From Callorhinchus milii (taxonomy: Eukaryota), in contig NW_024704742.1 in the NCBI RefSeq assembly GCF_018977255.1, forward strand, positions 98,954,001-99,018,000: 64,000 nt of DNA, given 5' to 3'. The notes beneath the pieces are model-generated. The model saw nothing but the letters and a program-made list of their open reading frames with translations. It had not been told where the DNA came from and did no database searches. The position numbers and the translations under genes were made by a program. Of the stretch, positions 1,531-63,072 are shown piece by piece; position 1 is the first letter of the stretch; each line of letters opens with the position of its first letter.

Positions 1531-2480
1531 GGGTGAAGTCAAATTTAGCTACTCTCCAAGACAACTGCCTGGTGATCCGATGGCTAAGAGGAAATGTAAT
1601 GGTTCTCCGGAAGACTTCACAAGTGCTCCAATGTTAGTTTCAGCAGAGGAGAATTCCATAACATTACTAATGTTGAAGCTAAGCCTGACTCACACAAATT
1701 AAAACAATTCTTTTAAAAAAATGACAGCAAACACAATTAAGGCGGCAAAAAAAGGTTTAGCAATCAAACAAAGCAATCAAACCGTAGCTTAATTTTAAGA
1801 AGTGGACTGAACTGCATGATTTACTTTTGAACACAATCAACTTATTTTTGAAAAAGCTTATTTTAAAACACATTTCATAAGTGATCCATTACCATCACTT
1901 TCCTTGGCAATCAGTTTTTGATGTCGTGGCATCTCAGCATCAATCCTGAAAACGTCCACTTGGGAGTTTTTAACCGATGTACAGAAGCTAGTGAAGAATC
2001 TGGGAAGCAATGTTCTGAAGTCAATGTAGGAGAGTCTGCTTCTGTTAATTTGTGCACATATCACCTTCGGGCAGATATTTTCGCCTGTCATTAACTGACT
2101 GCAGGCCTGTTTTCACCCCCGTGAAACATGATAATTATTAATCTTCCCGTTAAAAGATTCATGAGGCTTTGGATTACTTTTCAGTGAAAGGTCACAAGGT
2201 AAAGTAAATTAACAGACCTTTCAGTAAATGTTACAATAGGGCACTTTTGGTGTAATACTAACCGGTAGGTTTCAGATGTTGGGTTTCATCTAATTCAGAA
2301 TTTAGTTTCCTTCAATTATTTGTGTTACTAAGCCTTGTTTAGATTTCTGTTCATCAGTTGAATAGTAGAAAGTGATTTTGTCACAAATTCTGTTGTTCTC
2401 TTTATTTGAGAATTTTCACTCAAAATCTACATGTCATCTTGTTTGAGGTTGGATAGTTATCTCAAATGCTTTGGATTTGT

Positions 2481-3219
2481 TTTTTTTATTGTTCTTATTT
2501 GGTCAGCCAGGGGTCTGACACATGCGGAAGCCCATTCCATGCTTAAGAGTATCCAAACCAAGCTGAGATTTTCATGCATCCCATCTACACATGGAAATCC
2601 CAGAGATAGCTTGTTGGAATGATATGCACACTCTCTCCCTGGAGGTACACATCATGCTTAATTCTGGAAAGTATTAGGCACAGGTTAGCAAGAGCCAAGG
2701 CTTGGGAACCCCAGAATACTGCTGGAGTCTAAGCAGCTAAAACCACATGGCTTGCCATTGATATTACTGCTTTAAGCTTTCCTGCTGCTTGTCCAGCTAG
2801 GACAAAATAACTAATAATAATAATTTGGTCACTCAATCCACAACTGTTTGTGGGACACTGCTGTGCGCAATTGGCTGCCACGTTTCTCCCACAAAATATA
2901 CAATCAATTCACTTTACAGTATATCCTGTGAAGCTCTTTGATATGTGATAAGGTGCTATATCAAATGCGAGGATTATTATTGTTATTAGGATCACCCTAC
3001 CCATTAGGGCTTTGGTTACCAGGGTTAACAGCCGAGTGGGATGACTTCCTACCCCCAGTGACTAGTTTGCCCTTCCAGGTCCTGCCGATGAGCCAGACCA
3101 TCAGCAGTGCTGATACTGCGGACCCACCTGGCTCAGGAACCGGGCTACTGAGACTGCCACATTCCATTGCCAGGCTTGTCAATTTGGAGCCTGTTCAGCT
3201 CCAAGGAGACCCCGCTTAC
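2481..3219 (-). mobile_element. Unclassified A-tailed retroposon, copy A (contains a SINE insert)
   Basis: Aligns by eye with five other copies. Flanked by CTTTGGATTT(T)GT at 2469-2480 and 3220-3232. Confidence 0.8.
2803..2986 (+). mobile_element. 5'-truncated tRNA-SINE nested in the unclassified repeat
   Basis: 3' half of the SINE. TSD TAGGA at 2798-2802 and 2987-2991. Confidence 0.85.
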
Positions 3220-3389
3220 CTTTGGATTTTGTAGTGTTGAAGAATGCAATTGGAATAAAGTCTCATCACTCCAAGAGAAAAGGGCTCAGTGACAAGTTAT
3301 CTGGAGTGACGAGTTAGGCATTCGTGTGTGTGTGTAAAAACAAATGTGCCCAGGAAATTGACAGCATAATGACAAGTTAAATCTTGGTC

Positions 3390-5010: not shown

Positions 5011-6245
5011 TGGTCGAGTTATCAGGCGTTTGCTGTACGATGACTGTGTTTTATAAAATAGAGGAAGGAAATGGAATAATCCTGTTTGATTTGACATTTA
5101 GCAAAATCTAAGTTAGAATAATTATTCACTGTAATGAGCAAACGAGAATTGTTCTCCATTGCTGATTTGAGTTAAATGGCTCTACAAAAGTTTCAGATCT
5201 AAAGTGTTGCAGTGAGGAGATTTCATGATTTCTGCAACTAAATTGGAAAAAAATCCTGTTTGCAATTGCAGCAATGTCCTTCACCAATTTTTGAGTCGTG
5301 TAACTTGAGCTTGCCTCCACACTACAAAGTGGGTGGGAAGATGACCAAATATTCAATATCAAAGTTCATATATGAATAATGAACATTTGGTGAGGGACCA
5401 GAAGACACCAACAACAACAACTTGGATTTATATAGCGCCTTCCACGCCAGAGGGCGTCTCAGAGCACCAATAATTTTGACATGCAAAAGAAGGCAAATAC
5501 CTTGAGGATAAAAGAAAGGGAAGGGAGAAAACTGGTAAAAAGGAAAAAAGTAATAAAAGTGGAATTTAGCCTGCATGGGCAACTAAGATTTTTTTTGATA
5601 ATTTGGGGAGATTTTTGGCATCAAACTGGCTGATTTAATATTGGGGTTTTTCACTCTCCTGCAAGAGACGTCATTGGAATTGTTATTTGCCCTTGTTAAT
5701 TTTTTTCTGTTATTTACACAATTTCATTTTAATGCTTTTGTGGAACTTCCGGTAGTTTGGTTTGAATACTCTTAGCATGGTGATGGTTTTCTGGGTGTGT
5801 CACATTCCTGGCTAATCAAAAATAACATTCTGCTATATTATTTTGTTTTCATTCACCTGTTTGTGGATGGCTTGGCAATAGCTGGTGTATTTAGTATCTA
5901 TTTTAAATTAGTATGTTGTTATATATAACAAAGTAGAAAGGGCTTTTTTCTCATGTTTGGCATTGGACCTCAAAGAAGAATTTGGGCTCTTAATCCATCA
6001 TATCTTGCTAATTATGGAATGACCGCTTGTATTGGGTAGGTTTGCTCAAGGGTTTGTGGTGGATTTGTTTGTATGGTTGCTCATAGGTGCTAAGATTGCT
6101 AAGGAGGTTGTGGTGATTCAAACCTTATCCATTTCCACCCTAAGATAATATTGTTCCCCACTCCCAGTCCCAGCCAAACAGAAACCATTGTGTCATATGG
6201 AGAAACTGTCCATATGTCCTTCAGTACTATTCTACTTCATACAAG

Positions 6246-12822: not shown

Positions 12823-13050
12823 TGGAGTCCAGTGGCATAGTTAGAGCACTCACCTTGCAAACAAGAGGACACAGGTTTGTTTCCCAGGTGGGGCAAAACC
12901 ATAGCAAGTTTTCTTACTCCACACACCTCTGTTTACCTAGTAGTAAATAGGAACCCGGTTATTAGTCAATAGGCGGATGGCTTTCTTGGGGTAATTATCC
13001 CTCAAAAATAATGTGGCTACTCAATCCATGATGATTTGTGGGAACTGTTG
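12823..13050 (+). mobile_element. tRNA-SINE, long form, 3' end missing
   Basis: GGAGTCC head and the CCTCTGTTTACCTAG..GGAACCCGG segment. Confidence 0.8.
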
Positions 13051-13889
13051 TATCCAAACCAGATTGAGAGTTTTATAAATGCGTGCCACCTATGATTGGA
13101 AATTTCCCTTTGTCTGGAATGGAATATATGCCAGTCTCCAAATACTGTAGGACTTCACAGCAAGGAGTATCATCCTGTACTTCAGTACTGTATATCTGTT
13201 CTGTGTCAATGTGTTGTACCATTATGCCACTTACAAGAGCATCCTTTCATGTGAAAACAACAAAATATCTTAAGCAAATACAACTACTGTGCAGTATGTA
13301 GTGCTATTTCTAGATGCATGAAAATTTGATAGATACTGCGCATTTTCTTTCTAGATGACTGACAGTAAATGTTCCTTAAACAAATTATCAAATCCAAAAC
13401 CATCTCTGCTAAAGGTATAGTTCAAGTTGAAGAGTTAAATCTTAAAATACCTGAAATAGTCCTGAGCACTCTCAGAACATGTTGAGATTCCACTTAGTGT
13501 TCATTAATCCTGCACAGCACAGGCTCCAATAGTTCATACAGCACAAGACAAATCATCTGATCTTCCATCACACTACCAAACCATTTTTTTCTTTCTAAAT
13601 GCATAAACAGAAATCACATTCATACACATCACCACTCATGTATAAATGACATCCATATGGTATACTTTGTCCTGCACTTTGTCCTACTACTGCCACAACG
13701 GAGATCAACCAATTTAGCATGGGCAAGGAAGTAAAGGTGAGGTCTTTTTGTTTTTTTTTGGCTCAACCAGTCACCTAGCTTCACCAACTGAGCTGGCAGA
13801 GGAACAATTGCATCACTCCAATGAGAAATCGAAACACCGAGGGTAAGCTCTTTCAATGGTCCCTCGTGAATAGAGATACTGCGATGAAC

Positions 13890-25912: not shown

Positions 25913-25939
25913 CCGAGTGCCCCACTGCTAAAAGGAAAC

Positions 25940-26811: not shown

Positions 26812-26812
26812 T

Positions 26813-26838
<26 letters not shown>
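26812..26838. repeat. (TA)n microsatellite
   Basis: Read directly. Confidence 0.9.
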
Positions 26839-26843
<5 letters not shown>

Positions 26844-26983
26844 AGCGGAGACGGGACAAAAGCCTGAAGTGTGAGTGAGTGAGTGAGTGTGTGAGGAGGA
26901 GAAATGGGGGACATTCCCGCAGGTCTCTCTTCCGGGGTTGTGAGCCGCTGGAACCGCGTAGCCGAGGCCGGTGTTACACTGTA

Positions 26984-31300: not shown

Positions 31301-33714
31301 AACTGACACCAGAATATCCTTTATGTATTTTTTAAAAAGAAAATAGATACTCGAGTAAGGAATATGGAGAAATTTGATAAAAGATTTGTCTGAATTAATG
31401 AACAAATTGAATGGCCTACTCCTGCTTCTATATTTTGCAGGGTGAGGTGACGTTCCAGCAAAGCCTGATGCTGTCTACACGTGTCCAGACAGCAAGGTTT
31501 ACTGCCCAGTAATGGAGTTTTCTAATGTAAATAAAAGTCGGTGTAACATACACTCCAAAGCTGCAGTGTGTATTAGTCCAGGAATATGTTTTGCCTTCCA
31601 TTCGGGTGGGCAGTATACAGACTATTTCAAATGAAGCTTGTACTAGTCTGCTTCCTACGGTGTATGGTGGGTTTCGCCCACGGTAAACTGAAGTTCAGAA
31701 TTTTTTGGCAAGATGTTTAGTGGAATCTCCCAAATGTTTCAAATGACGCAGGCTGTTTAAAGGGGTGGAATTGAGTAGTGATAGTACTCTCATACCTTGT
31801 ATAAATTGCAGCTTTGTTTAATATTTATCTTGCAAACTGAAACCCCATAAAACTATTTGAAGACACAAGGAAAGTTTTAGTAATCCCTACACTTGATATA
31901 GCACTGTTCAAGTTGGGACGATGAAACAAAGCACTTTGCAAGATATACCATAAAGTGTAGTGACTAATTGTAGGCAAATGCAGCAGCCAATTTGCACAGA
32001 ATAATGTCCCACAAACAACCATAAAATTAATGACCAGTTTTATTTGTAGGGTTGTTAGGCGGGAGAAACTCCCTTGATTTTTTTTAGCAATGCTCAAACA
32101 TCCACCTGAACAGGCAAAGATGGGACCTTGCACAGAAAGTGGAGGAGGGGAGCCTAAATGATATCTACAGACTAGATTTATTACATTCCTTGTGAACATC
32201 AACAGATTATGCACCGGCATTTCTTAAATGCAAAATTGCCATTTTCCTCCAGTGTTTTTGCTCACTGGTTTATTTTCTGACTTCGCTGCTCGAGATTTAC
32301 AATTCACCAGCCGTGAATTTCAGAATCCATCAAATCTAGTTTACGGCTTGTTTTTAAGATCATTGCATGCATAAACTGGTGTGTGGATTAACAGGCAGAG
32401 TAATCGTTAGTCTTGTGCTTGTTGCTATAGTCCGGTAAAGCAAGATTTTATTTATTGAGTGCCGGTAATAGATATTTATTTTAATTTTCATTCCTCAATT
32501 GTATTTTTAATCCACATTGAAATATTCAGTTATTTGAAAGAAGCAATGACTGAACTGTCTAACTGCTTCCATTTGACTACTGCACCTGTTGTGTTTGACT
32601 GTCTTCTCTGACCCCAGACAAGACAGAGTAACTGTTTGCCAGTGACTAATGCCGATGCCTTTGCAAGCAGCTGAGGTTCACGTGACCTATGTTGTTTGGA
32701 GGAGTGGGGGGTGGTAAATACAAGAGAAGGTGATGAAATGTATTTACTGTTGGGAGTACATTCATTATATAATTCAGAATTGTGTTGCAAGGAAGCTAGT
32801 ATTTGTGTAATGACAGTTTATATTGAGACTTTTTTATGACAGTCGTATTGAGCCCATGGACATGAGAGCACATCTTATTCAAAAGGAGATGCTTGTAGTC
32901 ATGCTATTCAATATACGCTACTGCAGTATATCTACACAATTTTCTAAAAGAAAGCCATTTGGCCATCAAGCCTATGCTATTGCTTCCGCTGGAGCTATAA
33001 CTTCAATTCCCAATTTTCCTACCAGCATCCTTTCTCTTATATACTCCCAAACAAACTACTTATCTGTTAAATCCTATGACCTTAGCAGCAATATGTGCAG
33101 TGTTTGTGGCAAATCGTTCATGTTCTAGTTGCAAGACAGTCTTGTACTTCTGCATACCATGTTACTGATTGCAATGACCATTCTATGTTACAAAATGGGA
33201 CCAAATTTGGAATATTCGATGCAAGGTTTCAAAACTGTAGTATTACATTTCTAGTATTAGTGTGTATGTTACTGCAATTATTGTGTAGTAGAGCCACCAA
33301 ATGGCTGTGAAAAGGTAGTGTAGCCTTAGTAGTGATAGTAGAAAAGGTAGTAATAGTAAATCCTTGCCTTATCACTTTGTCAAAATGTCATGTGCTTCAC
33401 AGAATTTTACTATAAAGTGTGCTGACTATAAAGTGTATCCAAAAATCAGTCCAGGCTTTATTTCTCCTTCTCCCTCCCCCTTCCCAATTAGCCTTATCTT
33501 AAATTCCTCAAGATCCTGCACAAAGAAATAGAGTAGATTAATATTGCACCCTAAAGCTAGCTTTCAATTAGCTTTTTTTTCCCTGATTCCTACAAGGATG
33601 TGTACAGTATATAGAATCCCATTTGTTGTGAAGGATCCTTATGAAGGGTGTGGTATCCTGTGCCTAATTTGTCCTTTTTGCTCTATATACGCTGTGGTTG
33701 GATATCTAGAATAT

Positions 33715-34120
33715 CCAGTGTCCCCAGAGCGACGTACCTTGCTTACCCAATTCCTGAAAATAGGCAAGATTGTCAAGAACCAAGGCTTGGGGACCCGAAA
33801 ATGTATGGGAGTACTCCTGGAGTTTAACCAGCTAAAACAACATAGCCTGCCATTGAAAGCGTTGCCTTTTGCTTGTCTGTACCCATTAGGGCTTTGGCTT
33901 GCATGGTTAACAGTAGCTGAGTGTGAGGAATCCCAGTTCAAGTGACTAGTCAGCTTTTTCAAGTCCTATTGATCATCCCGGCTGCTGTGCTTCATTAGCA
34001 GTGCTCTGGATTACTGCAGACCTACTTTGTTTAGGAATTGTACTATCGATACTGCCACAAAAGAGTGACTTGATTTCTGTTGCCCAATGTCACCTTGGAG
34101 CCAGTTCAACTCCCAATAAA
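33715..34120 (-). mobile_element. Unclassified retroposon, copy B (in the 5' intron of the ZFAND5-type gene)
   Basis: On +: CCAAGGCTTGGGGACCC..CCCATTAGGGCTTTGG..TTGGAGCC. Confidence 0.75.
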
Positions 34121-37355: not shown

Positions 37356-38986
37356 GTAAGAATCCAATTACAACATTCCAGGCATCTTGTTGTGCACATC
37401 TGATCCTAAAAGCCTTGAACTAGCATTCATTTAACTACTGTTGCTGATGTTTTGAAATTTGACCTCCAAGTAAGATTCCCCCGAAGGAAGGGAGCAGGTT
37501 GGTTAACAATGTTATCAAACAATAGTTGGTCAAATTCAGTCTTCTTTCATCATCAGGAACCCTCACCTGACATTCCTGCATTGCCTCAATAATGTGGGAT
37601 ACAGACACATTTCCCTAGGGAAGGGAAGTCTCTTTGCAAAATGGCATTGGGTTGTATCTGTGCTTTCAATTCTTGTGGCTAAGTAATCCAATTTTAAAGA
37701 TTATTAAAATGTTGTATAGAACCAGGTCCAAGTTTCATTTTTTTAAAAAAGTTAAAGCAAGCACTCAGTCATAATAAATCTTGCATTTATATAGCTCCTT
37801 ATTACATCATGCTGCTTCAATTCAGAAAGCTGTGCTTCAGGCATTTGAGTAGGCCCATAAAGCTTTCCCTTTCTCCCAACTTTGGGCTCTCCTCCACTAC
37901 CAATTGAGATGTCTGATCAGGTGGGGGTTAAAGATACTGTGGCACCCTTCGAAAAGAGAAGGGGGTTGCTATATGCAAATGGCCTACCACCTTCGCTGAC
38001 AAATACAGTTGATGCACTTTACACTAAATTCTGAATACAGTAATCCTAGCATTTGATATACTGCCTTCCACATTGGGTTGTCACATCTTGACTATAAACG
38101 ATTAGGTGCTGCATTAAAGGCAAGTATTTTTCTTTTCGCAGCCTCAGTGTAAGATTTCTGGAATGACTATTTAGAAATGTACCCTTTTTCTTTCAGAAGT
38201 AAAGGAAAAGAGCGCATTATGAAGACGTAACTGTTCTTCCTTCATAGTGAAAGATTTTGGGAAGTTTGGGGCCAGGGTTAGGCAGGCAAATTGGTACCTA
38301 CTGTAATTCAAATCATTACTGATGAATTCTTGCAAATTCAAATATTCAATGTTAAATCCTTTTGAGAAATGTAAAGGTTATTCCATTTCATTATATTAGA
38401 AAAGAAAATCTTTGAAATAATTTGGGAAAATTATATCCCAAAATGGCATTTCAACTTTTTCAAAAGGTAGATTAAATCAACAATTAAATTCTACTGGTGC
38501 CAACTCAAATTGACTTAGTTTAAATACAGCAATATCCCAGTTGATTCTGGGTACTTGAATGCAAGGACAGCAAATGTAATTCATGGCAAATGTTATTCAA
38601 TGTATTGCCTTCTGTCCCCCACTCAATCTTGCTTTCAGTTTAACCAAGAAATTAAAATGATGGAATGCCGTAGGTGTTGTAAATATACATATAGTGCCCC
38701 AACTTTTGAGACTGATTTTGTTTTGAAATTGGCTCTTATTGAACTTCAACTTCAAGAAAATTAGTTTGAGGTAAAATGTTTTAAGGCGTCTCTAGATTTA
38801 ACAGGTTGTAGGAATTCTGGTTAAACTTTGCATAGAAGTGCTAGTTATGTGCGTTTAAAGATGTGAGACTTCTCTTCCTCATGGGAGGTGTAAAGGCCAA
38901 TTGCTATATTTCAGTTATACTGCAGTCGACCGATTCCATTGTGCTAATCCACCCACATAACCAAAGTGAATTTTGCTTCTTTGCAG

Positions 38987-39084: not shown

Positions 39085-39814
39085 GTATGTAAAATTGCAT
39101 GATCTGAAAAGCTAGAGCATATTTTTCATTGGATAAAATCAAATTGTCTCAGGATTTCCAAGATTAAGATCTACTTATGAAAAATGAGTAGTTGAAGGGA
39201 GTTGCAGGACCTACTACATAGTTGTTCATAGAGACAGAACATAGTTCTTCCTATTGCTTTCAAGCCATTTGTGACTTGGTTGTTTGATGCTACATAAAGA
39301 TCCAAGCGCATAGACTACCATTTCCACCTGCTTCTAGGGAAGATGTGTAGTGTCGGAAGTGGCATCTATCAGATGAAGATAGTAAACTGAGGCCATGTCT
39401 GCTTGTTCAGATTGATGTTAGATTCCTTTAATATTGGGGAAAAGGGAGGACTTTCTCTCAGCATCACAGCCAACAATCCTGCAGAATAATTTGTAGTTTT
39501 GAATGATCTTGCTAGTTCGAATGTTGGTTGCTTGTCCTCGTTACACTTGATGATAAATCCTTGTATAGCATTTTAAGGCTTTTCTACATTTTAGAAATTT
39601 TTGATTTAATCTCTTTTGAAAAACTTCAGATGACATTTTGGGATATGTTTTTCCCAAGTTATTTCAAAGATTTTTTCCTAATATAATGAAATGGAATAAC
39701 CTTTACATTTCTCAGAAGGATTTAACACTAAATATTTCAATTTGCAAGAATTCATCAGTAACGATTTGAATTACAGTAGATTGCTGTTATATACTGTTCA
39801 ATTTTAGAATAAAC

Positions 39815-46035: not shown

Positions 46036-46174
46036 GCTTGCTGTTGGATCTTTACTGAAATAATCAATTTTCGTGCAGGTAAGTATCTGGATTCGTGTGG
46101 GACCCTCAAAATCCATGTGCAATAGGGCATTGTATGTTGTGCATTATTTTAAGGAATACTTGTGTTGTCTCTCT

Positions 46175-47900
46175 CATGAGTCAGGTTTCTAACTGATCGC
46201 AATTCTTAATAGTATCCAAACAAACAGTTCTGTGCATGTCACCTACACAAGGAAATTCTTGTGTATTTGAATGGAATGTACACTCCCTGGAGTGATGGAT
46301 TCTGCTTATTTAATTCCAGATAGAAATAGGTGTGTGTTGGCTAGAGCCAAGGCTTAGGGATCCCAGTGCATATTGGGGTACTGCTGGAGTCTAACCAACT
46401 GAAACCACGTAGCTTGCCATGATATCCCTGTCTGGCAAGCTTTCCCTCTGCATGTCCAGCTAGGATCACCCTACCTGTTAAGGCTTTGGCTTGCAGGTTT
46501 AACGGGAGCTGAGTAGGAAAAATCTTTGCCCACAGTATCTGGTCTGACCCTCTAAGTCCTACTGATGAGCAAGGATGGCTGGAATATCATCAGCACTACC
46601 TGCAGCACTGTTACCAGGGCTCCGTCTGCCTCCTCGTCCTCCTGGACCTCTCCACCATATTCGACACCGTCGATCACACCATCCTCCTCCACTGCCTGTC
46701 CTCCATCATCCACCTCAGTGAGATCGCACTCGCTTGCTTCAATTCCTATCTTACAAACTACCAGCACTACATTTTGCAAATAGCTTTTCTTCGGGCTTCC
46801 ACCTGGTCAAGCTCGGCCCCCATCCTTGGCCCCCTTCTCTTCCTCATCTATATGCTCTCTCTCGGTGATATCATCCTCAGATACGGGGTTAACTTCCACA
46901 TGTATGTGGATGACACTCAACTCTTCCACCTCCAGCTGCGACCCACAGTCCCCTAATGTTCTGTTAGCTTATTTGTCGGACATCAGGAGCTCGATGAGTA
47001 CAAATTTCCTGCAGTTAAACATCAACAAGACGGAAGCCATACTCTTTGGCTCCCACTAATGTCTTCTGTCTACGTTTCCAACCTCCTCAACCTATCTGAC
47101 CTGTCCTTAATACTCTCTGAACCCATGCGCAACTTAGGCATCAGGTTCGATCCCCAGTTATCCTTCCTCCCCCACATCAGGTCCCTAACCAGCACCGCTT
47201 TCTTCCACCTCTACCACATTGCCTGTCTCCGATAATACCTAGCCTCATAAGATGCCGAAACCCTTGTCCATGCCTCTGTCACCTCTCGGCTGGACTACTC
47301 TAACGCCCTCCTCACCGGTCTCCCCTCCTCGACTATTCCCAAAATCCAGCTCATTCAAAACTCCGCCGCCTGCATTCTCACCCCCACCAAACTTCGTACC
47401 CCGATTACTCCAATCCTTGCCAAACACTGGCTCTGTCACAGAGCGGATCGACTTCAAGATCCTCACTCTTGTGTTTAAATCCCTCCATTCCTTGGCATCC
47501 CCCTATCTCTCTAACCTCTCTCCCCACAGCAGTACCCGCTGCCTCCTCCATGTCCCCCGAATCCTCCGCACCACCATCGGTGGCCGTGCCTTCAGCCACT
47601 ACACCCCGAAACTTTGGAACTCCGTCCCTCAACCCATTCGCCTCATCCCCTCCTTCCCCATCTTCAGGTCACGCCTAAAGACCTTCCTCTTCAACCGCCC
47701 CTGCAGTCACCTTCCCCCTCCCCCTGTCTCGGCCTCAGGCTCCACCATTGTTAAGCGCTCTGAGACACCGCCGAACATGGAGGGTACTATATAAATGCAA
47801 GTTGCTGTTGTTGTAGACCCACCTGACCCAGAAATTGAATAACCGAGACTGATGCTTTGTTGCTAAGCACGTTCAGCTCCACGAAGACCCTGTTTATCTC
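46175..47900 (-). mobile_element. Unclassified retroposon, copy C (split by the L2 at 46612-47814)
   Basis: 46175-46611 and 47815-47900 join collinearly with copies A and F. Confidence 0.75.
46612..47814 (+). mobile_element. L2-clade LINE fragment, tail type B, nested in the unclassified repeat
   Basis: LLDLS, YVDDTQL, NINKTE and IGGRAFS motifs, and a (TTG)n tail. The host repeat resumes at 47815. Confidence 0.9.
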
Positions 47901-48964
47901 CCATTTCATTCTCCGTCCCAATCTAGGAGGAGAGAGCAATTAATGTTCATCTTCTGTGTCAGTCATAGAATAAGACAGATCAGTTAATATTCCAGGAGTA
48001 AGAATCTTCATCAGACTGGAATGAGCAGACATTAGAAATTTAAACTTTAAAATCACGAAATACTGCGCATGAACAAAGAGGTAGCAAATAGATCACTAAC
48101 TGATTGAGCAAGTAGGTAAGTGGTGAAACTGGTGGACTATACAGTATTTCAAAATTGCTCTTTTCCCTTACTCCCACCCCAGCAATGATTCCCTTTTAAT
48201 AAAGTACAGCTTAAACGGCACTTTTGCTCTGTTTGCAAGGCAAATCTCTGAATTGATTTGCTGGGGAGAATAATTAAAGTCAGGGATATTAAACTGCAAA
48301 AACCTTGCAGCAATAATAATCCTTGCATTTGATATTGCCTTATCACATCGAGTGTCTCTAAGCACTTCACAGTAATTACTGTTAAGTGAAGTGACCGTGC
48401 AGGCAAATGTGCTTCACAATCTAGAACAAAACTGAATTAGCATTCGATGAGCAATTATAGAAAGCTATAGTAATTCCATTAAAAATTACAGCTATTGCTG
48501 GTTTGTTCCTTCCAGTGTTGTTCATTTCATAATTGCTGCTGATAAGAAGGAAATTTTAATAAGTTTTTTTAATAATCAACTTTGCCACCAAGTGGTAAAA
48601 TGTAAGTATGGCAGCTTTATGTCTTCAACAACTCTACCCTTACATATTGAGTCTGTATTTGTACACTTTCAATATATGTGAATCATTGGAACAATTGTGT
48701 TGTTTATTTTTCCTCCTCCTATCCGCCCCCTACCCCCACACACACCCCATGCAATACCTTTTTTATTTTGTTTCTCTCATCAGCAGGAAAAGCACTGTTT
48801 TATAGTTTGCTATTCTGGAGGCAGGAAGAATGCCACAAAAATGAATGCAGTGACAATAAGAGGTAAGCTAGGCAAACCAAATAACATGTACTGACAAAAG
48901 TACTGTATTGTTTGCAAAGAACCACCCCTGCCCAGAAACCTGAACTGAACCAGAACAGCAAAGT

Positions 48965-49281
48965 AATAATAACAATAATCCTTGCATTTGATATAGCGCT
49001 TTTCACATCTTCTAGACGTCGCAAAGCACTTCACAGAATATGCTATAAAATGAATTGACTGTATATTTGTGGGCGAAACGCGGCAGCCAATTGCGCACAG
49101 CAGTGTCCCACAAACCGTCATGGATTGAAAATGACCAATTTATTATTGTTTTGTTTTTTGTAGGGATTATTATTAGGAGTGTGGAGTAAAGAAACTTGCC
49201 CAAGGTTTCGCCCTGCCTGGAATTGAATCCAGGTGTCTCACTTGCAAAGCAAGTGCTCTAACCACTGAGCTACAGGACTCC
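48965..49281 (-). mobile_element. tRNA-SINE, short form
   Basis: Well preserved full-length copy. Confidence 0.92.
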
Positions 49282-49454: not shown

Positions 49455-50015
49455 ATGTGGCTCTTAGGTGATATGCTTGGCAATGGAATTTTGGAATTGA
49501 ATCTATCATTTGTGGTGGTCTCGGTCATATGGTTTCTGAGCTAGGCAGGTCCACAGAACTCCAAGGCTTTATTGATGACAAAGTCAGGAGATCTTCAATG
49601 AACAAAGCAGTCAGTGGGGGCTGAAATTCTTCCTGCTCAGCTCCCGTTAACCCTCCAAGCCAACGCTCCAATGGTAGTGGGGTGGTTGGATAAAGGGCAA
49701 ACTTACCAGTCAGTGACAAACTGCATGGTTTTTGATAGTTAACCTCTAGCAATACCCCAACAGCAACAAATTACATTTGTATAATGCCTTTCACATCGGG
49801 AGGACATCCCAAGACACTGTTCAAGGCTACTCCAAACTACTTTGAGATCCCCAAGCTTTGGCTCTTGCAACCCATGCTTAATGTTTCAGGATTAAGAAAG
49901 CATCATGCATTCCTCTGGGGAGAGAATCTACACTCCATCCCAGACAAATGGAAATTGTCATGCATAAGTGGAACATTTAGTAGTTTTGTTGGATACTTTT
50001 AAGCGTGGTGATGGG
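49455..50015 (+). mobile_element. Unclassified retroposon, copy D (contains a short L2 tail insert at ~49760-49825)
   Basis: CTCAGCTCCCGTTAACC and CCCCAAGCTTTGGCTCTTGC blocks. Confidence 0.7.
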
Positions 50016-50319
50016 ATTTTGAGTGTATCATGCAAAAATGGCCAAAACTCTTGAGGGTTTGCAATTTTGCAATTCTTATGAGATTGGCTCATGCATTAAA
50101 ATATTAGGAACTGCAGCACAGTAGGAGGAGGCAATTCAGCGCATTCAGCCTAAATACTCACTACCTCATTCATTGAAGCTAACTACTGTACTTCAATCAG
50201 AGCAAGTCAAGTTGGCAAACAACAACTTGCATTTATATAGCGCCCATCAACCAGAGTCATGCCTTGGAATGCTTAAAGCTGTTTTTTAAAAAAAAGCTAA
50301 TGGGATCCAGGAATTCATA

Positions 50320-50650: not shown

Positions 50651-50689
50651 TCAGTTTTGTATTAGCTAAGGGCCATATTTCATTATGAC

Positions 50690-51079
50690 AGTTGGGGCAG
50701 GGAGTCCCACTCAGCTCCTGTTAACCTTGCAAGCCAAAGTCCTAACAGGGAGGGCGGTCCTAGCCGGACAAGCAGGGGGAAAGCTTGCCGGAAAGCAATA
50801 TCAATGGCAAGCTATGCAGTTTTAGCTGATTAGACTCCAGCAGTACCCCAATGCACACTCTGGAGTCCCCAAGCTTTGGCTCCTGCCAACCTGGGCCTAA
50901 TTCTGAAATTGGGTAAGCAGGATGCATCCCCCCAGAAAGAGAGTGCACAATCCATTCCACAATCTATCACTGCGGTTTCCATCTGTCGGTGGAAGGCAAG
51001 AAAATCTCAGCTTGGTTTAGATACTCTTAAGCATGATGATGGGTTTCCGCATCTTTCTGACTCCCGGTTGACAAAAAAA
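50690..51079 (+). mobile_element. Unclassified retroposon, copy E (5'-truncated, A7 tail)
   Basis: Ends with ...GGTTGAC followed by AAAAAAA at 51073-51079. Confidence 0.8.
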
Positions 51080-52689
51080 GTTATGGCATGTCAAATGCCT
51101 TTCCCCGACAATACTTTCTGGTAATTTGAGACATAAAGCATGAATTAGACTCATTCTGTATTTAGATCACCATAAAACCTAGTTAAGAAACAATATATAA
51201 TTAATTGCATTAAATGAACAGAGTTGCAGTGCTCCAAGATGCTATCCATTGTGAAGGGCACAATATAAATACAAGGAGCTGTTGTTGAGCTTCAGAATTG
51301 AATGAGGGGACATCTTAACCTTCCTCCTAATACAAATCAGACAGACCATTGAGTGGGGAGGATCCAGTGAGGGGAAGACTCAGATTAGGGAGTGCAGGCT
51401 TGGAGTTCTTCCGACATGAAAGGCACTATATAAATGTAATTTGTTGTTGTTGGAGTTTGGGTTGGAGCTTGAGAGTTCAACTGTTTTTTCTGTGTTGGAA
51501 AAGCCTATTGCTTGATGTATGATCTTGATACACTGGGGTCCTTCAGTAGAAATACATTATGACCATTCCTTTTTAAATTTCATATGGTGACAATTGTACT
51601 GCTTATTGGTATAATTAATCTTTATGAATCTATATGAGAAATATTTCTTCCAATTCTCAACAGTTTTGCTCTGCTGAGTCTCTTCTGATCAGATTCTATT
51701 CCTGGAAATACTCAGTAATGTCACCAACTGCCACAACACCAAGTTTTGCTTCCTGGAAGGATATTGCTCTAAATTATATTTAGTGCACATTTTTGGCTTT
51801 GATAGCCAGAGTGAGGGGAGCAGAACACATGTATTTGGCAACTATCACGCTAAGACTTAAAATAGGTTTATCTTAAATGTGATATATTTAATATTATATT
51901 GTAATTTAGTGTCAGCTTGGTTCAGTCAGTAGCATTCCACCTCTGTGTTAGACGTTTATGGGTGTAAGCTCAACTAAGGACTTTAAGTTCACAGTGTACA
52001 AAATACAGAGTCGCTATACTTTACGCTAAATGCTTTTAGAGGTTCTCTTGACTTGGGTGCTGTAACTAATACAAGGCTATTTTTATTTAAGTTTACAAAT
52101 TCAATGCACTCATTTTGGGTCTTTTCCATCCTCTAAAAATTGTTTCTTGTATTATGATTTGATCAGTTATCCAATCAATCAATGTTAATTTGGCAAGTCA
52201 ACTCCAGGTGTTTGACCTACTCATTTTGCTCTTAATATTATTTGTTCTGCACAAATGCATTCTTCCCACCATCCTCAGGTAATGAAACCTGAAGTAAAAA
52301 TAAACTATTTCCTTTGGTGTTTCCAAGAGAGAAAAAAAAATTACCATGTGCATTCAAGTAAAAACAATTGCTTGCAAAAACTAGCTTTTAAAATTCTACT
52401 TAATTTTTAGACTGAATGAGTAAAATACTTTATTTGTTTTCTACAAAATCGTATTAGGAAATCAATTTTGTGACAATGAAACCGACAAAGTAAATGATAT
52501 GCTATTCTGTTAGTTATTCAGTTAACTTTGCTTTCCAATTCTACTTCCTTTCTCCTTTTTCTTTTTTTTAAAAAAACTTTTCTAACGTAAAATCCTGTTC
52601 CAACTATCCCTTTTGGGAGTAAGAGTGGGTGTCTGCTTCTAATTGATTTTTTCATTGGTTGAAAGTCAAAAGACTTGTAATTGACAAGG

Positions 52690-54030: not shown

Positions 54031-54629
54031 GGAGTCCTGTAGATCAGTGGTTAGAGCACTCGCCTTGCAGCAAGAGACCTGGATTTGATCCCCAGCAGGG
54101 CAAAATGTTGAACAAGTTTCCTTGCTCCACATGCCTCTGTTTCCCTAGCAATAACTAGGAACCCGGTCGAATTTGCAGATCGCTTTGCCGAGGGTTATAA
54201 TTCCTTCAAAAATAAATTGCACAATTGGCTGCTGCGTTTCACCCACAAAATATGCAGTCAATTCCCTCTACAGTATATTCTGTGAAGCGCTTTGAAATGT
54301 CTAGAAGGTGTGATAATAATAATAATAATCCTTGCATTTGATATAGCGCTTTTCACGTCGGGAGGACGTCCCAAAGCGCTTCACAGAACACACTGTAAAG
54401 TGAATTGACTATATTTGTGGGCGAACGCGGCAGCCAATTGCGCACAGCAATGTCTCACAAACAGTCGTAGATTGAAAATGACCAATTTAATTATTGTTTT
54501 TGGTTTTGGAGGGATTATTATTAGGGGTTTGGAGTAAGGAAACTTGCCCAAGGTTTCGCCCTGCCTGGAATTGAACTCAGGTCTCTCGCTTGCAAAGCGA
54601 GTGCTCTAACCACTGAGCTACAGGACTCC
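54031..54629. mobile_element. Tail-to-tail tRNA-SINE pair (54031-54316 + long form; 54317-54629 - short form)
   Basis: Begins with GGAGTCC and ends with GGACTCC; the junction is at (AAT)n. Confidence 0.92.
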
Positions 54630-55228
54630 AAAGACAGGACTGTAACCCAGCATGAGGAAGAGAGAGAAAAGGCTGGAGGGAGAGTGCGAGTAAAAGGGTG
54701 GGGAGCAAGAGACTAGCAGCTTTCCGAATGAGGAGGGGACATTATAAACTCACTGCCCCCTTCATTTTCATGGTGCAGAAAACGCAACTGCATGGTTTCA
54801 ATCATGAATGTGGAAAATGAAAGCAAATGTAGACATAGAGATAAGCACAATGTCAAATGCAAGGATTATTATTATTTACTGTTAAGTGCAGTGACTGTGT
54901 ATTTGTAGGCAAACACTGCAGCCAATTTGCGCACTACAATGTCCCACAAACAACCAGATGGTGAAGGAGTTTTATTTGGGGAATTGTCAGTCAAGAGTTC
55001 AAGAGAAACTCCCTGCTCTTTGGAGTGGTGCCATGCGATCTTTAATATCCATCTGGACAGACCTCAGGTTAACATCTTATCCGAAGCATCTCCAACAATG
55101 CAGCACAACCGCAGCTCTGCATTGGAGCATCAACTGGTTAGTTCAAAGTTGCGAAAGGCCACTACACCGCAGCCAAAAAGGTAGTTTAATTGTTATGTAC
55201 GAAATGCAAGGATTATTGCCACTGCTTT

Positions 55229-55799
55229 TACTTTTTGGTCAGCCAGCTGTCTGACACATGAGGAAACGATCACCATTCTTAAGATTATCCAAACCAAATT
55301 GAGAATTCCATGTATCCCACCTATCAATGCGAATTCCAGATTTTTTGAATGCCCACTCTCTCCCTGAAGGGACGCACCCTGCATATCTAATTCCAGAAAG
55401 TATTAAGTGCAGGTTGGCAAGAGACAAGGCTTGGGGACCCCAGAGTGTGTGTTGGGGTACTGCTCGAGTCTAACCAGCTAAAACCGCATAGCTTGCCATT
55501 GATAGAACTGCTTGGCAAGTCTTCCCCACTGCTTGTCCAGCTAGGACCACCGTACCCATTAGTGCTTTGGCTTGCAAGGTTAACAGGAGCTGAGTGGGAT
55601 GACTCCCTGCGCCCAGTGATTGGTTTGCCTTTCCAGGTCCTGCCGATGAGCCAGTCTGGCTGTATTGTCATCAGCAGTGCCCTGGCATACTGCGGACGCG
55701 CCTGGCTCAGGAATCGGACTACCGAGATCACCACAGAGGGCTGGCTCGATTCTGACATTCCGTTGCCAAGCACATCACTTTGGAGCCTGTGTCAGCTCC
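55229..55799 (-). mobile_element. Unclassified retroposon, copy F, with a 27-bp TSD
   Basis: Flanked by AAATGC(A/G)AGGATTATTGCCA(C/T)TGCTTT at 55202-55228 and 55800-55826. Confidence 0.85.
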
Positions 55800-56099
55800 A
55801 AATGCGAGGATTATTGCCATTGCTTTCGTTTTCCGGCTTCTCGCCTCTTCAATGCAAATGCATTCTCCAAACCCTGACACGAGGAGGCGTGGGTGTCTTG
55901 CTTTGTGTCTGGTGTGACTGAAGTTCTCTCCACCAAACCTCCCCCACCAGAACCCTTCCCCCTGCTTCTGGTGTGGAGGATGATTGGAGGCTGAGCCGCC
56001 GCACCCCTCCGGCTCTGATCCTTGTCCTCCCAGTGGTGGAGACAGATGTCCATCAGAGCCTGAGGCTGATGTTGGGCTCAGCTCAGCTGGGAAGTGAAT

Positions 56100-56424
56100 C
56101 CAAAGGAAAGAGGAGTGAGGCTCAGAGCAGCAGCAGCAGCCAGTCTGCCTCTCTCGCTCTCTCTGTGTGTGTGAGAGTCAGTCATTGAGTGTACAAACTG
56201 TTCCTCTTTTTGGGGGGGATTTCACGTTTTACATTTTTTTTTGTTTGGAGTTGGCATTTTATATATTTTTATTCTGTATTTCAAAGAAAAAAAAATGTAT
56301 TGTTGCTGAAGGTTGTTCCCACAGCCAGTCAGGGAGGGGAAGGCAGAGCAGAGGAGACTCAACACCAAAACACCAGCAGAACCAAAGAGAGGAAACCCAT
56401 TTCAGGGACAGACCAAGTGAGAAG
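56100..56424 (+). other. Candidate non-coding first exon of an unidentified downstream gene
   Basis: (CAG)n, (CT)n and (GT)n leader resembling a vertebrate 5' UTR, ending in a perfect AAG|GTGAGT donor at 56425. No long ORF. The start is approximate. Confidence 0.45.
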
Positions 56425-56743
56425 GTGAGTTTTGGGGGATTTCTTCTCTGGTGACTGATACACTGTAGCCCCAAGCCCTTTCTTTCCAGTGTGAATTAAC
56501 TTGAGACAGTATTGCGAGAAACGTTAACAACAAGGGTTTGTTGTTGTCAGTTTGTTGAAGTTCCACACATTTTTTTGTGGGGGGAGGGGGGAAGCAGGGT
56601 CTCATAAGTTGCCATTTTTTAAAAAAAAGTCCTGTCACCGCAAAAGATAGGATAATGGTAACTTCAGTCTTGAATTTCTTATGTTTGTGGCTGTCAGACA
56701 CAAGTTAACGTGAGCTTCTGTCTTGGGCTCTAACTGTCTCCAT

Positions 56744-56985
56744 CCGTCTCGGGCTCCGTCCGGGACCGTCTCGGGCTCCGTCCGGGACCGTCTCGGGCTC
56801 CGTCCGGGACCGTCTCGGGCTCCGTCCGGGACCGTCTCGGGCTCCGTCCGGGACCGTCTCGGGCTCCGTCCGGGACCGTCTCGGGCTCCGTCCGGGACCG
56901 TCTCGGGCTCCGTCCGGGACCGTCTCGGGCTCCGTCCGGGACCGTCTCGGGCTCCGTCCGGGACCGTCTCGGGCTCCGTCCGGGA
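56744..56985. repeat. Perfect minisatellite, 11 x 22 bp (CCGTCTCGGGCTCCGTCCGGGA)
   Basis: Read directly, 242 bp. The ORF track shows the expected 22-aa periodicity. Confidence 0.97.
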
Positions 56986-57769
56986 CCATGAATTTGTAGA
57001 GCTGGAACCTCATTGAAGCCGCCCATCTGCCGAACTGAATGAGTGGTGTTTGTGCATTTCCCTTCCTGTCTCAGTCCAGGGATGGTAGTTTACAGTTCTG
57101 CAAAACATCATCCAGAATGTTTTCTAAATCATTATCTCAAACTTTTCTTTGCAGGTTCTTGGGAATATTGCAATGATCTAAAAAATATAGTGAATGAAAA
57201 GAAGAAAATTTAGTGGTTGCCCTTCTTTGATGGGTCTAAAGTAACTTGTAGCTTAGAAAACATTTTGAATTCACAAAAACATTGTGTGTTCATTTATGTT
57301 CTTCATATTGAAATATATGCACTCACTGCTCTGTATTGTTCACGGTGTTATAGACTTTGCAATATTTCATGGACTAGAGTGATAAATGAATTATATTGTA
57401 CAATACAATATGACGCATTAAAACTGTACAAGGAATACAGGCAGAAAGTCCACTTTTCTTTCTTCCCCTGCTGCCCCTTTCTGCATATACCAAGGAACCC
57501 AACCACAAGGATGTGCTGGAAAACAGTAACATTGTGAGGAAGAATATTTTAAAAATAGAAAACAGATTGGCTCGAAGAGAAATGTGATAAACGTGTGAGA
57601 TTTGACATCTGTTTCTGCTGACACAAACTGCCTTCGTAATAAGCAAAATTAACTGTGGTATGAAACCCACAGACAAACAATTTGTGGCAACATGAATAAC
57701 ATCCCTGCCTGATCTCGCCCCACCCTACCTCTGCAACTTCCTTCAACCCCACCAACCCTGCCACTACTT

Positions 57770-58844: not shown

Positions 58845-60140
58845 ATAATAATGTATAATATAGCACCTTTTGAGTCAGGAGACTGTCTCAAAGCACTTCA
58901 GGATTTACTGTGAAGTGTAGTGAATATGTATTTTGTAGGTGAATGCGATTGCCAAATTGCATATAGCGGTGTTTCACAAACAACCATTGACTGAATCACA
59001 ATTTTGTTTAGGGGATGGTTGGTCAAGCCTTTGGAAAATACTCCCTTCCCTTCTCTTTTCGAATAATACCATGGGATCTTTGACATCCACCTGAACAAGC
59101 AGACAAGACCTTAATTTAACATTGCATCCAAAGGACGGCACCTCTAACAATGCAGTGCACCCCCAACAATGCACTGCAGTGTCAGCCTAAACTATGTGAG
59201 ATCAAAGTGCTAATATGGCACTGACACCATCAGCATCCAAGGCTGCACTCTCCACCTCTCAAAGCCGGTCAGGAACCTCGGCGTTTTGTTCGACCCTGAG
59301 CTGTCCTTTCTCCCTCACATCCGCACCACAACTGGCACCGCCTTCCATCACCTCCGGAACATCGCCAGACTATGGCATTACCTCACCCCTCACGCTGCTG
59401 AAACCCTGGTCCACGCCTTTGTCACCTCAAGGCTGGACTACGGGAACTCTCTCCTCGCCGGCCTTCCCGCCACCTCCCTCCACAAGCTGCAGGTCATTCA
59501 GAACTCTGCAGCTCGTGTACTGTCCCGCACCAGGCTTCGGGACCACATCACTCCCACCCTCGCTCGCCTCCACTGGCTCCCCATCCCCCAGAGGATCGAA
59601 TTCAAGATCCTCATCCTCACCTACAAGGCCATTCACGGCCTTGCTCCCTCCTACCTCTCCAACCTACTATCCCCCTACCTGCCTGCTCGTACCCTCCCTT
59701 CCTCTGGCTCCGGTTTGCTCCACGTCCCCCGCCCCAACCGCCCTACCATCGGTGGTCGGGCCTTCAGCCTCTCAGCCCCGAGGCTCTGGAACTCCATCCC
59801 CCAGTGCCTTCGCCGCTTCCTCCAAGGCCGGTCTCAAGTCCTTTCTCTTTGACGTGCTTTCAGCTCCCCTCTCGACTCTCTTCCCCCTCCTCGCTCCCTC
59901 CCTTCCCTCCCCTCACCCTGACCATTTCCCCCCTCCTCGCTCCCTCCCTTCCCTCCCCTCACCCTGACCATTTCCCCCCTGCTCGGGTCATGACCCAACT
60001 GTGCAGCGCCTTGGGACGTCCTCCTGACGTGAAAGGCGCTTTATAAATGGAATCTTGTTGTTGTTGTTGTTGATGGGGCTTGAACCCACAACTCTGTGAC
60101 TAATTTTGTGAGAGTGATACCAACTCAACTAGGCTGACAC
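58845..60140 (-). mobile_element. Older Deu-domain SINE (SacSINE1/AmnSINE1-like), split by the L2 at 59219-60072
   Basis: CCATGGGATCTTTGACATCCACCTGAAC..GGACGGCACCTC..GTGTCAGCCTA, with the head GGGGCTTGAACCCACAAC..GGCTGACAC after the L2. Related decayed copies at ~24570-25075, 31930-32130, 39330-39540, 43615-43990, 44190-44390 and 54875-55140. Family name is from recall. Confidence 0.7.
59219..60072 (+). mobile_element. Relatively young L2 3' fragment nested in a Deu-type SINE
   Basis: Uninterrupted 188-aa ORF2 C-terminus (59286-59852), stem-loop, (TTG)n tail. ATGG is duplicated at 59215-59218 and 60073-60076. Confidence 0.92.
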
Positions 60141-60147
60141 CAATAGA

Positions 60148-60513
60148 TTAATAATCCTTGCATTTAATATAGCTCCTTATCATGTCTTTAGGATTTCTCA
60201 AAGCGCTTCAAAGAATATACTGTAAAGTGAATTGACTGTATATTTTGTGGGTAAAATAAGGCAACCAATTGCTCACAACAGTGTCCCACACACAGTTGTG
60301 GATTGAGTGACCAATTATTATCATTTTGTTTGAGGGGAATTATTACCCCGGGAAAAGCGATCCACTAATCAACTAACAACCGGGTTCCTATTTACTGCTA
60401 GGTAAACAGAGGAGTGTGGAGTAAAGAAACTTGCTAAACGTTTCACCCTGCCGGGAATCGAACCCTGGTCTCTCGCTTGCTCGGCCCGTGCTCTAACCAC
60501 TGAGCTACAGGAT
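60148..60513 (-). mobile_element. tRNA-SINE, long form
   Basis: Head, internal segment, core and tail present. Confidence 0.9.
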
Positions 60514-62769
60514 TAGTTCCTTGGGAATGCAAAATTTATTGGAATATAAAGGCAGAGAATTGAGGTAAAAGGGATATTCTCTGATAAGCAAGTGGTGACA
60601 ACTGGGATTAGTGCTGTGGCACCAGTTGTGCCTCTTCTTAGAAATGGTTTGGATCATCAGTGAGTATTTCTAAGTTTGCAGAAGACTCAATGCTCGGTAT
60701 TGAAGAAGAATGAAGACAGCAGTAAATTGCAAAGGACGAAGATAAATAAAGCGCGTGGGCAGAACTACGGCCAATGCTGCAAAGTTTGAAATACATTAAA
60801 GATGGAAGAATAGTAAATGGGAGTATATCTTCAATGGGAGAAGCACCTAAGAGGGATAGCGGAGCAAAGGGATCAAAGTGGAGAATTTAGATTACGTAGA
60901 TCTGCCATGATTTAATAAACTGGTGGAGTAAGTTGGATGGGCTGAATGACGTGCTCCCAATTTTTCTGTCAATATTGCTCTCCTACTGGATATACGGAGG
61001 AGGTTCAGAGCAGCGTAGGATGATTGATGCTGTTACCTGAAATGTGCATTTTGTTCTTGTGAATAAACACTTAGCATCAGACTTGGTAACCACCCCTGAT
61101 AATATGTAAAACAGGGACTTGCCACATGAGCAATCCCAGGTACAGATCTTCATCATCAGCGAGCCAAACCACAGTGCAGTATCAATCAATAGCTATGATG
61201 CCATGAATTTTTCTTGTTGGAAATGCTGTTCTTTTCAAAATTCCCCAATGTGGTGACTGTGGCTGAGAGGATTCAGAGCTAAATGATTTAAATGTATTAG
61301 AACACTCCAGCGATGAGAGATCTGGATTCCACTTGTTTATTATCTTTATATATTTTTTAAGAAAACCAAATCATTAGGTTTCTGTTTTAATTCACTAAAA
61401 CATGTATCCTTGAAGAAGAAGAAATTTGCCCACAAAATACAGTCAATCTACTTTTCAATATATTCCGTGAAGCATTTTGAGACATCTTGACAATATGATA
61501 AGACGCTATATCCAATGCAAGAATTATTAGAAAATAGTCTTATACAACAGTTACCACACATACTGTATTCCCTTCAAGCTTCAAACCCTAGTGTGCAACT
61601 AATTATGGTATCTGCTTTAAATTGAAGAAAAAATCCTGTGCCCATTGATTGAAAGTTTGTTCCAGCCAAGGTCAGCTGTCTTAAGTTAAGAAATAAGGAA
61701 TGTAAAGCACAATCCGCTTTTGTCTTGCTCAATAGACTGCTTGATATATCCACACTCTCAGAGTTCCACAGTGTTAACCTTCCTAAAGATGCTGTAATAC
61801 ATTTCAGGGAGCCTCAAGGGATGAACATAGCAAAAGAGAAGAACCTAGTGGGTCATTTCACATAATAATGGAGCTCAAAATCTGTTTTTGTTTTAGATAT
61901 TTTCTTTGGTTCAGCACATAATCTACTTTATATTATTGAGCAAAGCTTAATATTTGATGGCCTGAGTAGGTCAGCTGCAGCTGAATCCATTTTCCATTTG
62001 ATTACCTGTAGATCTGAATTTGAATCAGGGTACCAAATTGAATAAATTGAGATGGAGCAGAAAGAAGAGATGCAAATAAATGATGTATGATGAAAAGCCA
62101 CAGGATATCATTTATATTCATTAGGATTGTTGTGCCAAGTCCCAGTTTTTCATCTTGCATTCTTCATACCATATGTTATTTAAGTATTTTTTTAAAAGTT
62201 TGAGACAAAATAAAGGTCGTGATTTCCCCTTGTGCACCATCTCCTCATACAAACATATTCACAAGAGCCCCAAGATGTGGACTTTAGCTTTTACGGAAGC
62301 TGGTGTTTTTTATTCCGGTAGTTATCTTTTTGGGTAGCAGCTGGTCTCATGGTAGACAGTAACTACAAGCAGCCTCTTGCAACTTGAAACTGAATTGATG
62401 ATAGGTTTATACCTCTGTATTTGAGTGTGGGGCTAACTTAACCTGCAAATGGCAGTGTAAAGCTTGTACCAAAACATCTCTGTCCCACAGATGTTATTGC
62501 ACTTGTACATGCATAACTTACAATTTGTTAAAATGTGACTAAACTAAAATAGATTAATAATTTTAGAAAATTCAGAAAAGATTGAAAGTATACTTTTAAA
62601 CTCTAGCTACTAATGGGTATTAATAATAATAATAATATTATTATTATATATTATATATATTAGTATATTCATGTGAGATTACCCGATTAATACTTCTTAT
62701 TAGCTTTGTTAATGAAGTACCCACTTAGATAGCAGAGCCTATTTGGTCACAAAAATATTATCTTCAGAA

Positions 62770-63072
62770 AATAATAATAATAATCATTTGACATAGCGCT
62801 TTTCACGTTTTCTAGACATATCAAAGCACTTCACAGAATATATTGTAAGGTGAATTGACTGTATATTTGTGGGCGAAACGCAGCAGCCAATTGCACAAAG
62901 CAGTGTCCCACTAACAGTCATGGATTGAAGTTACCAAATTATTATTGTTTTTTTTCTTGAGGGATTATTATCAGGCATGTGTAGTAAGGAAACTTGCCCA
63001 AGGTTTCGCCCTGCCGGGAATCGAACCCACGTCTCTCGCTTGCGAGGCAAGTGCTCTAACCACTGAGCTACA
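62770..63072 (-). mobile_element. tRNA-SINE, short form
   Basis: Head, core and tail present; internal segment absent. Confidence 0.9.

Follow-up and report, generated by a model that had tools for sequence, protein, structure and literature searches.

The window analysed here, a 64,000-nt stretch of DNA from the elephant shark Callorhinchus milii, contains eight homologous fragments of a dispersed repeat of about 600 nt, designated A to H, and the copy at the locus under study is copy F. Six of the fragments (A to F) had been listed as members of one family by a first-pass annotation of the sequence. Their homology was confirmed by a blastn search of the window with copy F, which found A, B, C, D and E at 67-76% identity (E values of 1e-15 to 1e-75) and also recovered G as a seventh, 3' fragment. 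When the window was searched with a profile of the family copies, two extra fragments were obtained, G (5727-5824, plus strand, E 5e-16) and H (13050-13128, minus strand, E 3e-9). In the alignment, pairwise identity among the copies ranges from 62 to 82%, and comparison with the majority sequence of seven copies gives about 90% identity for F and A and 70% for D. This degree of divergence indicates that the family is old. Copies B, C and D have 9-18 differences in common per pair, which suggests that these three sequences may form an older subfamily, and younger insertions split copies A, C and D. The family is thus a real, old and very abundant non-LTR repeat, and the positions of its copies are collected in Table 1.

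Table 1. Copies of the repeat family in the window and features associated with copies F and A
Feature	Position	Strand	Remarks
Copy F, body	55237..55801	-	Begins 17-19 nt inside the family 5' boundary
Copy F, short A-rich tail	55229..55236	-	
Copy F, target-site duplication, 3' side	55202..55228	.	27 bp; 16 bases shared with the abundant SINE at its 3' end
Copy F, target-site duplication, 5' side	55800..55826	.	2 mismatches; final 2 bases also fit the element
Copy F, stop-free frame of 134 codons	55387..55791	-	Without a family or LINE-protein match
Copy A, 5' part	2988..3221	-	Extends to the family 5' boundary; 5' hairpin at 3164-3221
Copy A, 3' part and A-rich tail	2479..2803	-	Copy A is divided by a SINE piece at ~2804-2987
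Copy A, 10-bp direct repeat	3220-3229 and 2469-2478		
Copy B	33707..34115	-	Begins at ~+17; 3'-most ~170 nt and tail missing
Copy C, 5' part	47809..47899	-	Extends to the 5' boundary
Copy C, 3' part	46169..46608	-	L2 fragment between the two parts of copy C
Copy D	49455..50035	+	Most diverged copy; begins at ~+33; ~65-nt insertion at 49763-49827
Copy E	50687..51082	+	5'-truncated at ~+200; A8 tail
Copy G	5727..5830	+	Last ~100 nt only, with a short A-rich tail
Fragment H	13050..13128	-	Internal, from the 3' third

The 3' end of the family is well defined. Copies A, E and F end in GGYTGAC(C) followed by an A-rich run, as had been described, and G carries a decayed form of the same end, so that the run stands at one fixed point in four copies; C and D are decayed there, and B and H lack the family 3' end. 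Copy F is indeed flanked by a direct repeat of 27 bp with two mismatches. A repeat of about 12 bp had been claimed for copy A; a repeat does adjoin both ends of this copy, but its length is 10 bp exact, or 11 bp with one mismatch. Repeats of at least 10 bp occurred in 55 of 20,000 random pairs of flanks. Target-site duplications were also sought at B, C, D, E and G, where none rose above chance, so the long duplications attributed to the family hold for F and not as a family trait (one of the seven copies examined, A to G). The duplication at F is complicated by the fact that 16 of its 27 bases are identical to the 3' terminus of a tRNA-headed SINE that is abundant in the window and that we take to be SINE2-1_CM. 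This places copy F inside or at the remnant of a SINE tail, and since the remaining 11 bases do not belong to that tail, the duplication is considered real. At both F and A the duplication begins with AAA and the target junction shows a 2-nt microhomology. For these two copies, the combination of tail and duplication fits target-primed reverse transcription, as the first-pass annotation had proposed for the family. We infer that the family as a whole was made by target-primed reverse transcription with the machinery of a poly(A)-type LINE. The contrast that had been drawn with the L2 and SINE insertions of the window held up: the SINE inside copy A and the L2 piece inside copy C show duplications of 3-5 bp and (ATT)n or (TTG)n tails. 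The tRNA-headed SINE, with its (ATT)n tail and its duplications of 3-5 bp, has no sequence in common with the family, and no 3' end common to the family and the L2 or SINE elements of the window was found. Because of these differences in tails, duplication lengths and 3' ends, the family is likely to be independent of the L2/SINE system of the window. An empty site of F was not seen in the contigs assembled from the runs of organisms B and C, which, being contigs, give no proof on this point.

The 5' end of the family was located by combining the copies of the window with contigs from sequencing runs. At position 55787, a loose end is reached from which 209 contigs of the run X1 continue for 30 letters, the last 19 of which pass the end of copy F and correspond to copy A at 3205-3221. 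The agreement among these letters is 0.61, compared with 0.42-0.63 at internal loose ends, and copy C holds the same stretch beyond the F end as copy A. On the basis of the 209 contigs and of copies A and C, copy F is 5'-truncated and the family continues at least 19 nt further in the 5' direction. Measured from the boundary defined in this way, A and C begin at 0, B and F at +17 to +19 and D at +33, and the other limits lie farther inside, at ~+200 in E, ~+465 in H and ~+490 in G. Five of the eight limits therefore lie inside a 35-nt interval (p 0.0024 if starts were uniform over 600 nt, a simple null applied to one window; p 0.0010 for five of seven), and none of the eight copies was seen to extend beyond the boundary. 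Copy A stops at the boundary with its duplication, copy C enters unrelated sequence within 30 nt of it, and the sequences found upstream of A, B and C do not match one another. Among copies translated in protein models (see below), the alignment starts near the boundary for the one in P0002 and only at ~+105 for the one in P0005. The similar 5' limits from which the first-pass annotation had suggested a defined full-length RNA are thus confirmed as a real clustering, but they do not demonstrate a discrete RNA, given the truncation of F and the position of the limits of E and G far inside the unit. Contig depth along F drops most in its 3' third, where F diverges, and the depth profile was for this reason not read as a curve of truncation. 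The boundary at 3214-3221 (minus strand) resembles a splice donor (AG followed by GTAAG) and also contains TAA, a possible stop codon of an upstream ORF. A start exactly at the GT of the donor-like sequence was considered and rejected, two further upstream bases being common to copy C and the contig majority.

The description of the unit as structured applies to its reconstructed ancestor and not to F. Folding of F alone is like that of shuffled sequences (z -0.10), whereas the majority sequence of seven copies folds with a z of -4.25 (-3.51 for the reverse strand). Folding is strongest over its first 100 nt (z -4.6), where one hairpin begins at the boundary; the individual hairpins in A and F have z values between -0.3 and -2.4. 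At the 76 confident pairs, however, paired and other positions have changed equally (0.167 each) and double changes that keep a pair were found in 7 of 340 cells, all of them in C and D. The folding model thus suggests that the ancestral RNA folded well, while selection on its structure is not supported by the decay rates. RNAalifold applied to five 5' ends, which are ragged, returned no pairs. No tRNA head or other Rfam family was detected on F with Rfam, at gathering thresholds and at E values up to 10, or with ARAGORN, in agreement with the first-pass annotation; the same searches do detect the tRNA heads of the SINEs, and the sole Rfam signal on F is a chance-level match to mir-24 (E 0.82). 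The stated absence of Pol III boxes is nearly correct, except that the majority sequence contains a pair with one mismatch, an A-like box at +20 and a B-like box at +91, 71 nt apart, which 80 of 3000 shuffled sequences equal. An internal T4 run at +324 is present in five of the six copies that cover the site. Such a run is expected to end Pol III transcription, and its presence argues against read-through by this polymerase. A purpose-written descriptor of the HDV-like fold, used without a positive control and matched by 3 of 40 shuffled sequences, gave no match in either strand of the majority sequence and one internal match in B. Readings of the unit as telomerase RNA, 7SK, pistol or hammerhead were considered and rejected, as Rfam was blank and the hairpins are plain; a hammerhead-like word near +135 forms one arm of a plain hairpin.

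The coding signal of the family is equivocal, and the statement that it has no conserved ORF turned out to be too strong. Copy F contains stop-free frames of 134 codons in sense and of 176 codons in antisense, the latter running into the flank, and the two frames have their third positions in common. Compared with the majority sequence, the sense frame has a pN/pS of 0.72 (p 0.011, uncorrected). A permutation null on its synonymous bias gave p 0.019, or 0.086 family-wise, and by column third-position changes amount to 75 of 192, against 64 expected (p 0.059). Eleven new stops occur among the copies. Pfam returned no match for the long frame of F, PDB sequences gave none when queried with the antisense translation, and the Atlas recognition score of the F frame was 1129, under a threshold of 2300, with no usable match. 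A search of the long frame against 1.84 billion proteins gave six matches, none of them a LINE protein, and the C-terminus of an ORF2 is not recognisable in the unit, a result that is silent on a pure 3' UTR. Three of the six matches are the C-terminal tails of predicted C. milii proteins in UniRef (a carboxylesterase, COP9 subunit 5 and one resembling gelsolin), another is an unnamed frame of 71 residues, and the other two, P0003 and P0004, are repetitive proteins that were set aside as spurious. P0001, P0002 and P0006 are matched in the 134-codon frame, the sole frame queried. The UniRef entries P0001, P0002 and P0005 of C. milii terminate in translated pieces of the retroposon, and these tails are probably gene-model artefacts or the product of exonisation. 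Searches with a word index, a weak method that missed P0001 as well, scored 0 of 5, 260 and 2 candidates. With regard to host genes in the window, Pfam was run on 147 of 204 candidate frames and detected no domain, its one match being a tandem repeat.

The matches in three C. milii protein models demonstrate, at the level of sequence, that the family occurs in the elephant shark. Its abundance was estimated by aligning the contigs of four coded runs to 55000-56200 at 80% likeness. The run X1 contributed 32,683 records on this stretch, part of which is SINE sequence. Its summed depth rose to a maximum of 304,702 in the F core, compared with 7.19 in the unique flank; the runs of two other species labels reached peaks of 434,721 and 322,661, with single contigs ~26-64 deep. 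Summed contig depth is no copy number and was read solely as an order of magnitude, which would be 10^4 copies of the family in three species labels. The presence of eight fragments in 64 kb agrees with this high abundance. A pattern scan of viral contigs and of prokaryote genomes gave no hit, and the three loci that it returned from metagenomes were dismissed, all of them being chance 20-mers without further homology. No description of the family was found in the literature covered, with Repbase Reports, subscription papers and supplements outside that coverage, nor in the available portions of PMC3747384, PMC4350176, PMC9004415, PMC5753468, PMC12952989 and PMC5381603. Unless it is already catalogued (Repbase, Dfam, GenBank DQ524329-DQ524339), the family would be new, although of a known kind.

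The reading that we favour, with a probability of about 0.47, is that the copies represent the dead 3' ends of a LINE with a poly(A) tail, old and abundant in chimaeras and belonging to a clade other than the L2/CR1 elements that dominate the window. According to this reading, a LINE protein would nick an A/T-rich target and prime on the A-rich 3' end of the RNA, as the tails and the AAA-initial duplications would imply. Copying would mostly halt at or inside the strong hairpin located ~600 nt from the 3' end, the hairpin being the presumed cause, and the cDNA would then be joined through a 2-nt microhomology such as that observed at F and A. A second nick would yield the duplication of 10-27 bp seen at two copies, and the inserted sequences would subsequently decay and receive the SINE and L2 insertions now visible in A, C and D. 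The truncation of F with respect to the family, the deep cuts of E, G and the P0005 copy, the very high abundance under three species labels, and tails and duplications unlike those of L2 and SINEs are all consistent with a truncated LINE tail. The stop-free frame that extends up to the 5' boundary, with its pN/pS of 0.72, could be the terminal part of a longer ORF. Further, no convincing route to a discrete RNA emerged from the searches for a small-RNA head, an HDV-like fold or a promoter compatible with the T4 run. Against a truncated LINE tail stand the clustering of the 5' limits and the lack of any copy seen to pass the boundary, the long frame that matches no LINE protein and whose synonymous bias is insignificant once corrected, and the weak pair of A-like and B-like boxes. 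The position of the hairpin is also awkward, because it begins at the boundary and a stalling enzyme would be expected to halt at its 3' base. Finally, 27 bp exceeds the duplication lengths given for L1 (7-18 bp) and RTE (7-15 bp) in the accessible part of PMC6007223. If the copies are LINE tails, they are ordinary genomic debris whose use is limited to repeat libraries and the cleaning of gene models, and the sharp boundary would still be a clear example in which a hairpin of the RNA determines the point at which LINE insertion stops.

The closest competitor, to which we give only slightly less credence than to the truncated LINE tail, is a discrete non-autonomous retroposon of ~600 nt, as the first-pass annotation had proposed, whose own 5' start would lie at the foot of the first hairpin. 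Its source may be the 3' UTR of a LINE, fused LINE ends or some other RNA; transcription would depend on an internal Pol III promoter, now decayed, or on a Pol II promoter outside the unit, a poly(A)-type LINE would supply the copying machinery in trans, and F, B and D would be near-full-length copies with short 5' losses. The clustered 5' limits are the best fact for a discrete unit, together with the behaviour of A and C, the sole copies that reach the boundary, both of which stop at or near it. The fold of the first 100 nt, whose hairpin starts at the boundary, and the box pair at +20 and +91 point in the same direction. Comparable headless elements exist, as the parts of PMC5786205 and PMC4494074 available describe bipartite RTE and Vingi derivatives and Sadhu. 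On the other hand, the sharp start is known from the copies of the window and not genome-wide, the internal T4 run should end Pol III transcription and no HDV-like fold was found, the equal decay of paired and unpaired positions and the few compensatory changes give no demonstrated selection on structure, and the truncations of E, G and the P0005 copy lie deep within the unit. In the available text of PMC5786205, ORF-less bipartite derivatives of LINEs are reported for RTE, Ingi, Vingi and R2 only, and this restriction of headless non-autonomous LINEs shifts the prior towards a truncated tail. It is this prior, together with the lack of a credible promoter, that ranks the truncated LINE tail above the discrete unit. 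The most novel form of this reading, an uncatalogued headless retroposon of ~600 nt with its true start at the base of the long hairpin and with neither a small-RNA head nor a ribozyme, we regard as unlikely to be both true and new. Such an element would have spread to at least 10^4 copies in chimaeras with the machinery of a poly(A)-type LINE and would be a vertebrate counterpart of Sadhu-like elements, outside RTE, Ingi, Vingi and R2, the groups known to give rise to ORF-less derivatives. Were the discrete unit correct, a very high copy number would be possible in vertebrates without a tRNA, 5S, 7SL or snRNA head or a ribozyme, and the question of how such an element is transcribed would be raised.

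Far less probable is a small protein-coding retroelement or an amplified retrocopy, composed of the 5' hairpin, an ORF of ~125 codons, a 3' UTR of 170 nt and poly(A). HAL1 is an example of an ORF-only derivative to which such an element could be likened. The 134 open codons of F, shared in frame with P0001, P0002 and P0006, and the uncorrected bias in pN/pS would be expected from it, but the bias loses significance after correction, 11 new stops have accumulated, neither a protein family nor the Atlas threshold was reached, and the named protein matches are the tails of unrelated elephant-shark gene models. The least probable reading, in which the family was not target-primed but is a solo LTR, a DNA transposon or a Penelope-like piece and the duplication at F has a separate origin, could draw on the short tails, on a duplication in only two of the seven examined copies and on the partial identity of that of F with a SINE tail, but it is opposed by the 11 duplicated bases foreign to that tail, the A-rich run at the same point of four copies, the plain hairpin that holds the hammerhead-like word, the absence at the family ends of TG...CA termini with a 4-6 bp duplication, and the lack of terminal inverted repeats (best 6 of 8), as previously noted.

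Comparison with known systems helps to place the family. With truncated poly(A)-type APE LINEs (L1/Tx1, or alternatively Vingi/Ingi), it has in common an A-rich 3' end, an A-initial duplication of at least 10 bp, 5' truncation with a 2-nt microhomology and a high copy number; it differs in that its 5' limits cluster within 35 nt, in lacking a match to ORF2 and in the 27 bp of F. In the accessible part of PMC5203782, only fragments of L1 are mentioned for Chondrichthyes. The bipartite ORF-less LINEs covered by the available text of PMC5786205 (Bov-A, RTESINE1/2, RTE-N2_Lch, RIME, NARTc and the Vingi-1_EE derivatives) resemble the family in having no small-RNA head, a length of a few hundred bases, a favoured 5' limit and mobilisation in trans, the last a candidate property here. 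In contrast to them, neither a LINE 5' end nor an HDV-like ribozyme, the latter known at the 5' end of some bipartite non-autonomous LINEs, was found in the chimaera family. SVA and Sadhu are described, in the part of PMC4494074 available, as retroposons that are neither SINEs nor non-autonomous LINEs; Sadhu is a plant family, of Arabidopsis, and is likened to the present one by description and not by sequence. Within the elephant shark, SINE2-1_CM and SINEX-1_CM with CR1-2_CM are abundant non-LTR elements of the same lineage (PMC3747384 and PMC1845163, as far as their accessible text goes), and the available portion of the second paper gives ten repeat consensus sequences, three of them LINE-like and one unidentified.

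Several other features were observed in the window. Unique GC-rich sequence at 55820-56143 adjoins the 5' end of F and is a candidate exon or regulatory region; a contig of organism C spans ~55842-56010 with scattered differences, which indicates conservation of this flank in another species. Decayed sequence at 47920-48020 (minus strand), immediately upstream of copy C, contains the word CTGATGA. It resembles the ends, with their hammerheads, of the Penelope-like repeats known from cartilaginous fish. Just upstream of copy A lies one member of an unclassified two-copy repeat (1324-1427 and 3280-3377, 71% identity). The tRNA-like heads of the SINEs are located at 6428-6498, 9914-9985, 12508-12579, 49208-49279, 54033-54103, 54556-54627, 60443-60514 and 63012-63072; all eight exceed the Rfam threshold for tRNA, and ARAGORN reports a tRNA-Ala in six of them. 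Both strands carry L2-type fragments that are truncated at the 5' end and retain long frames, at 3813-5010, 15815-16893, 46620-47810 and 59200-59970. The region 25900-28200 is GC-rich, with simple repeats and frames without a Pfam domain, and is a possible promoter island. A GC-rich tandem repeat, whose translation has a period of ~25 codons, occupies 56700-57090, and an inverted pair of 188 bp with 90% identity lies at 38298-38485 and 39596-39779, with 1.1 kb between its arms.
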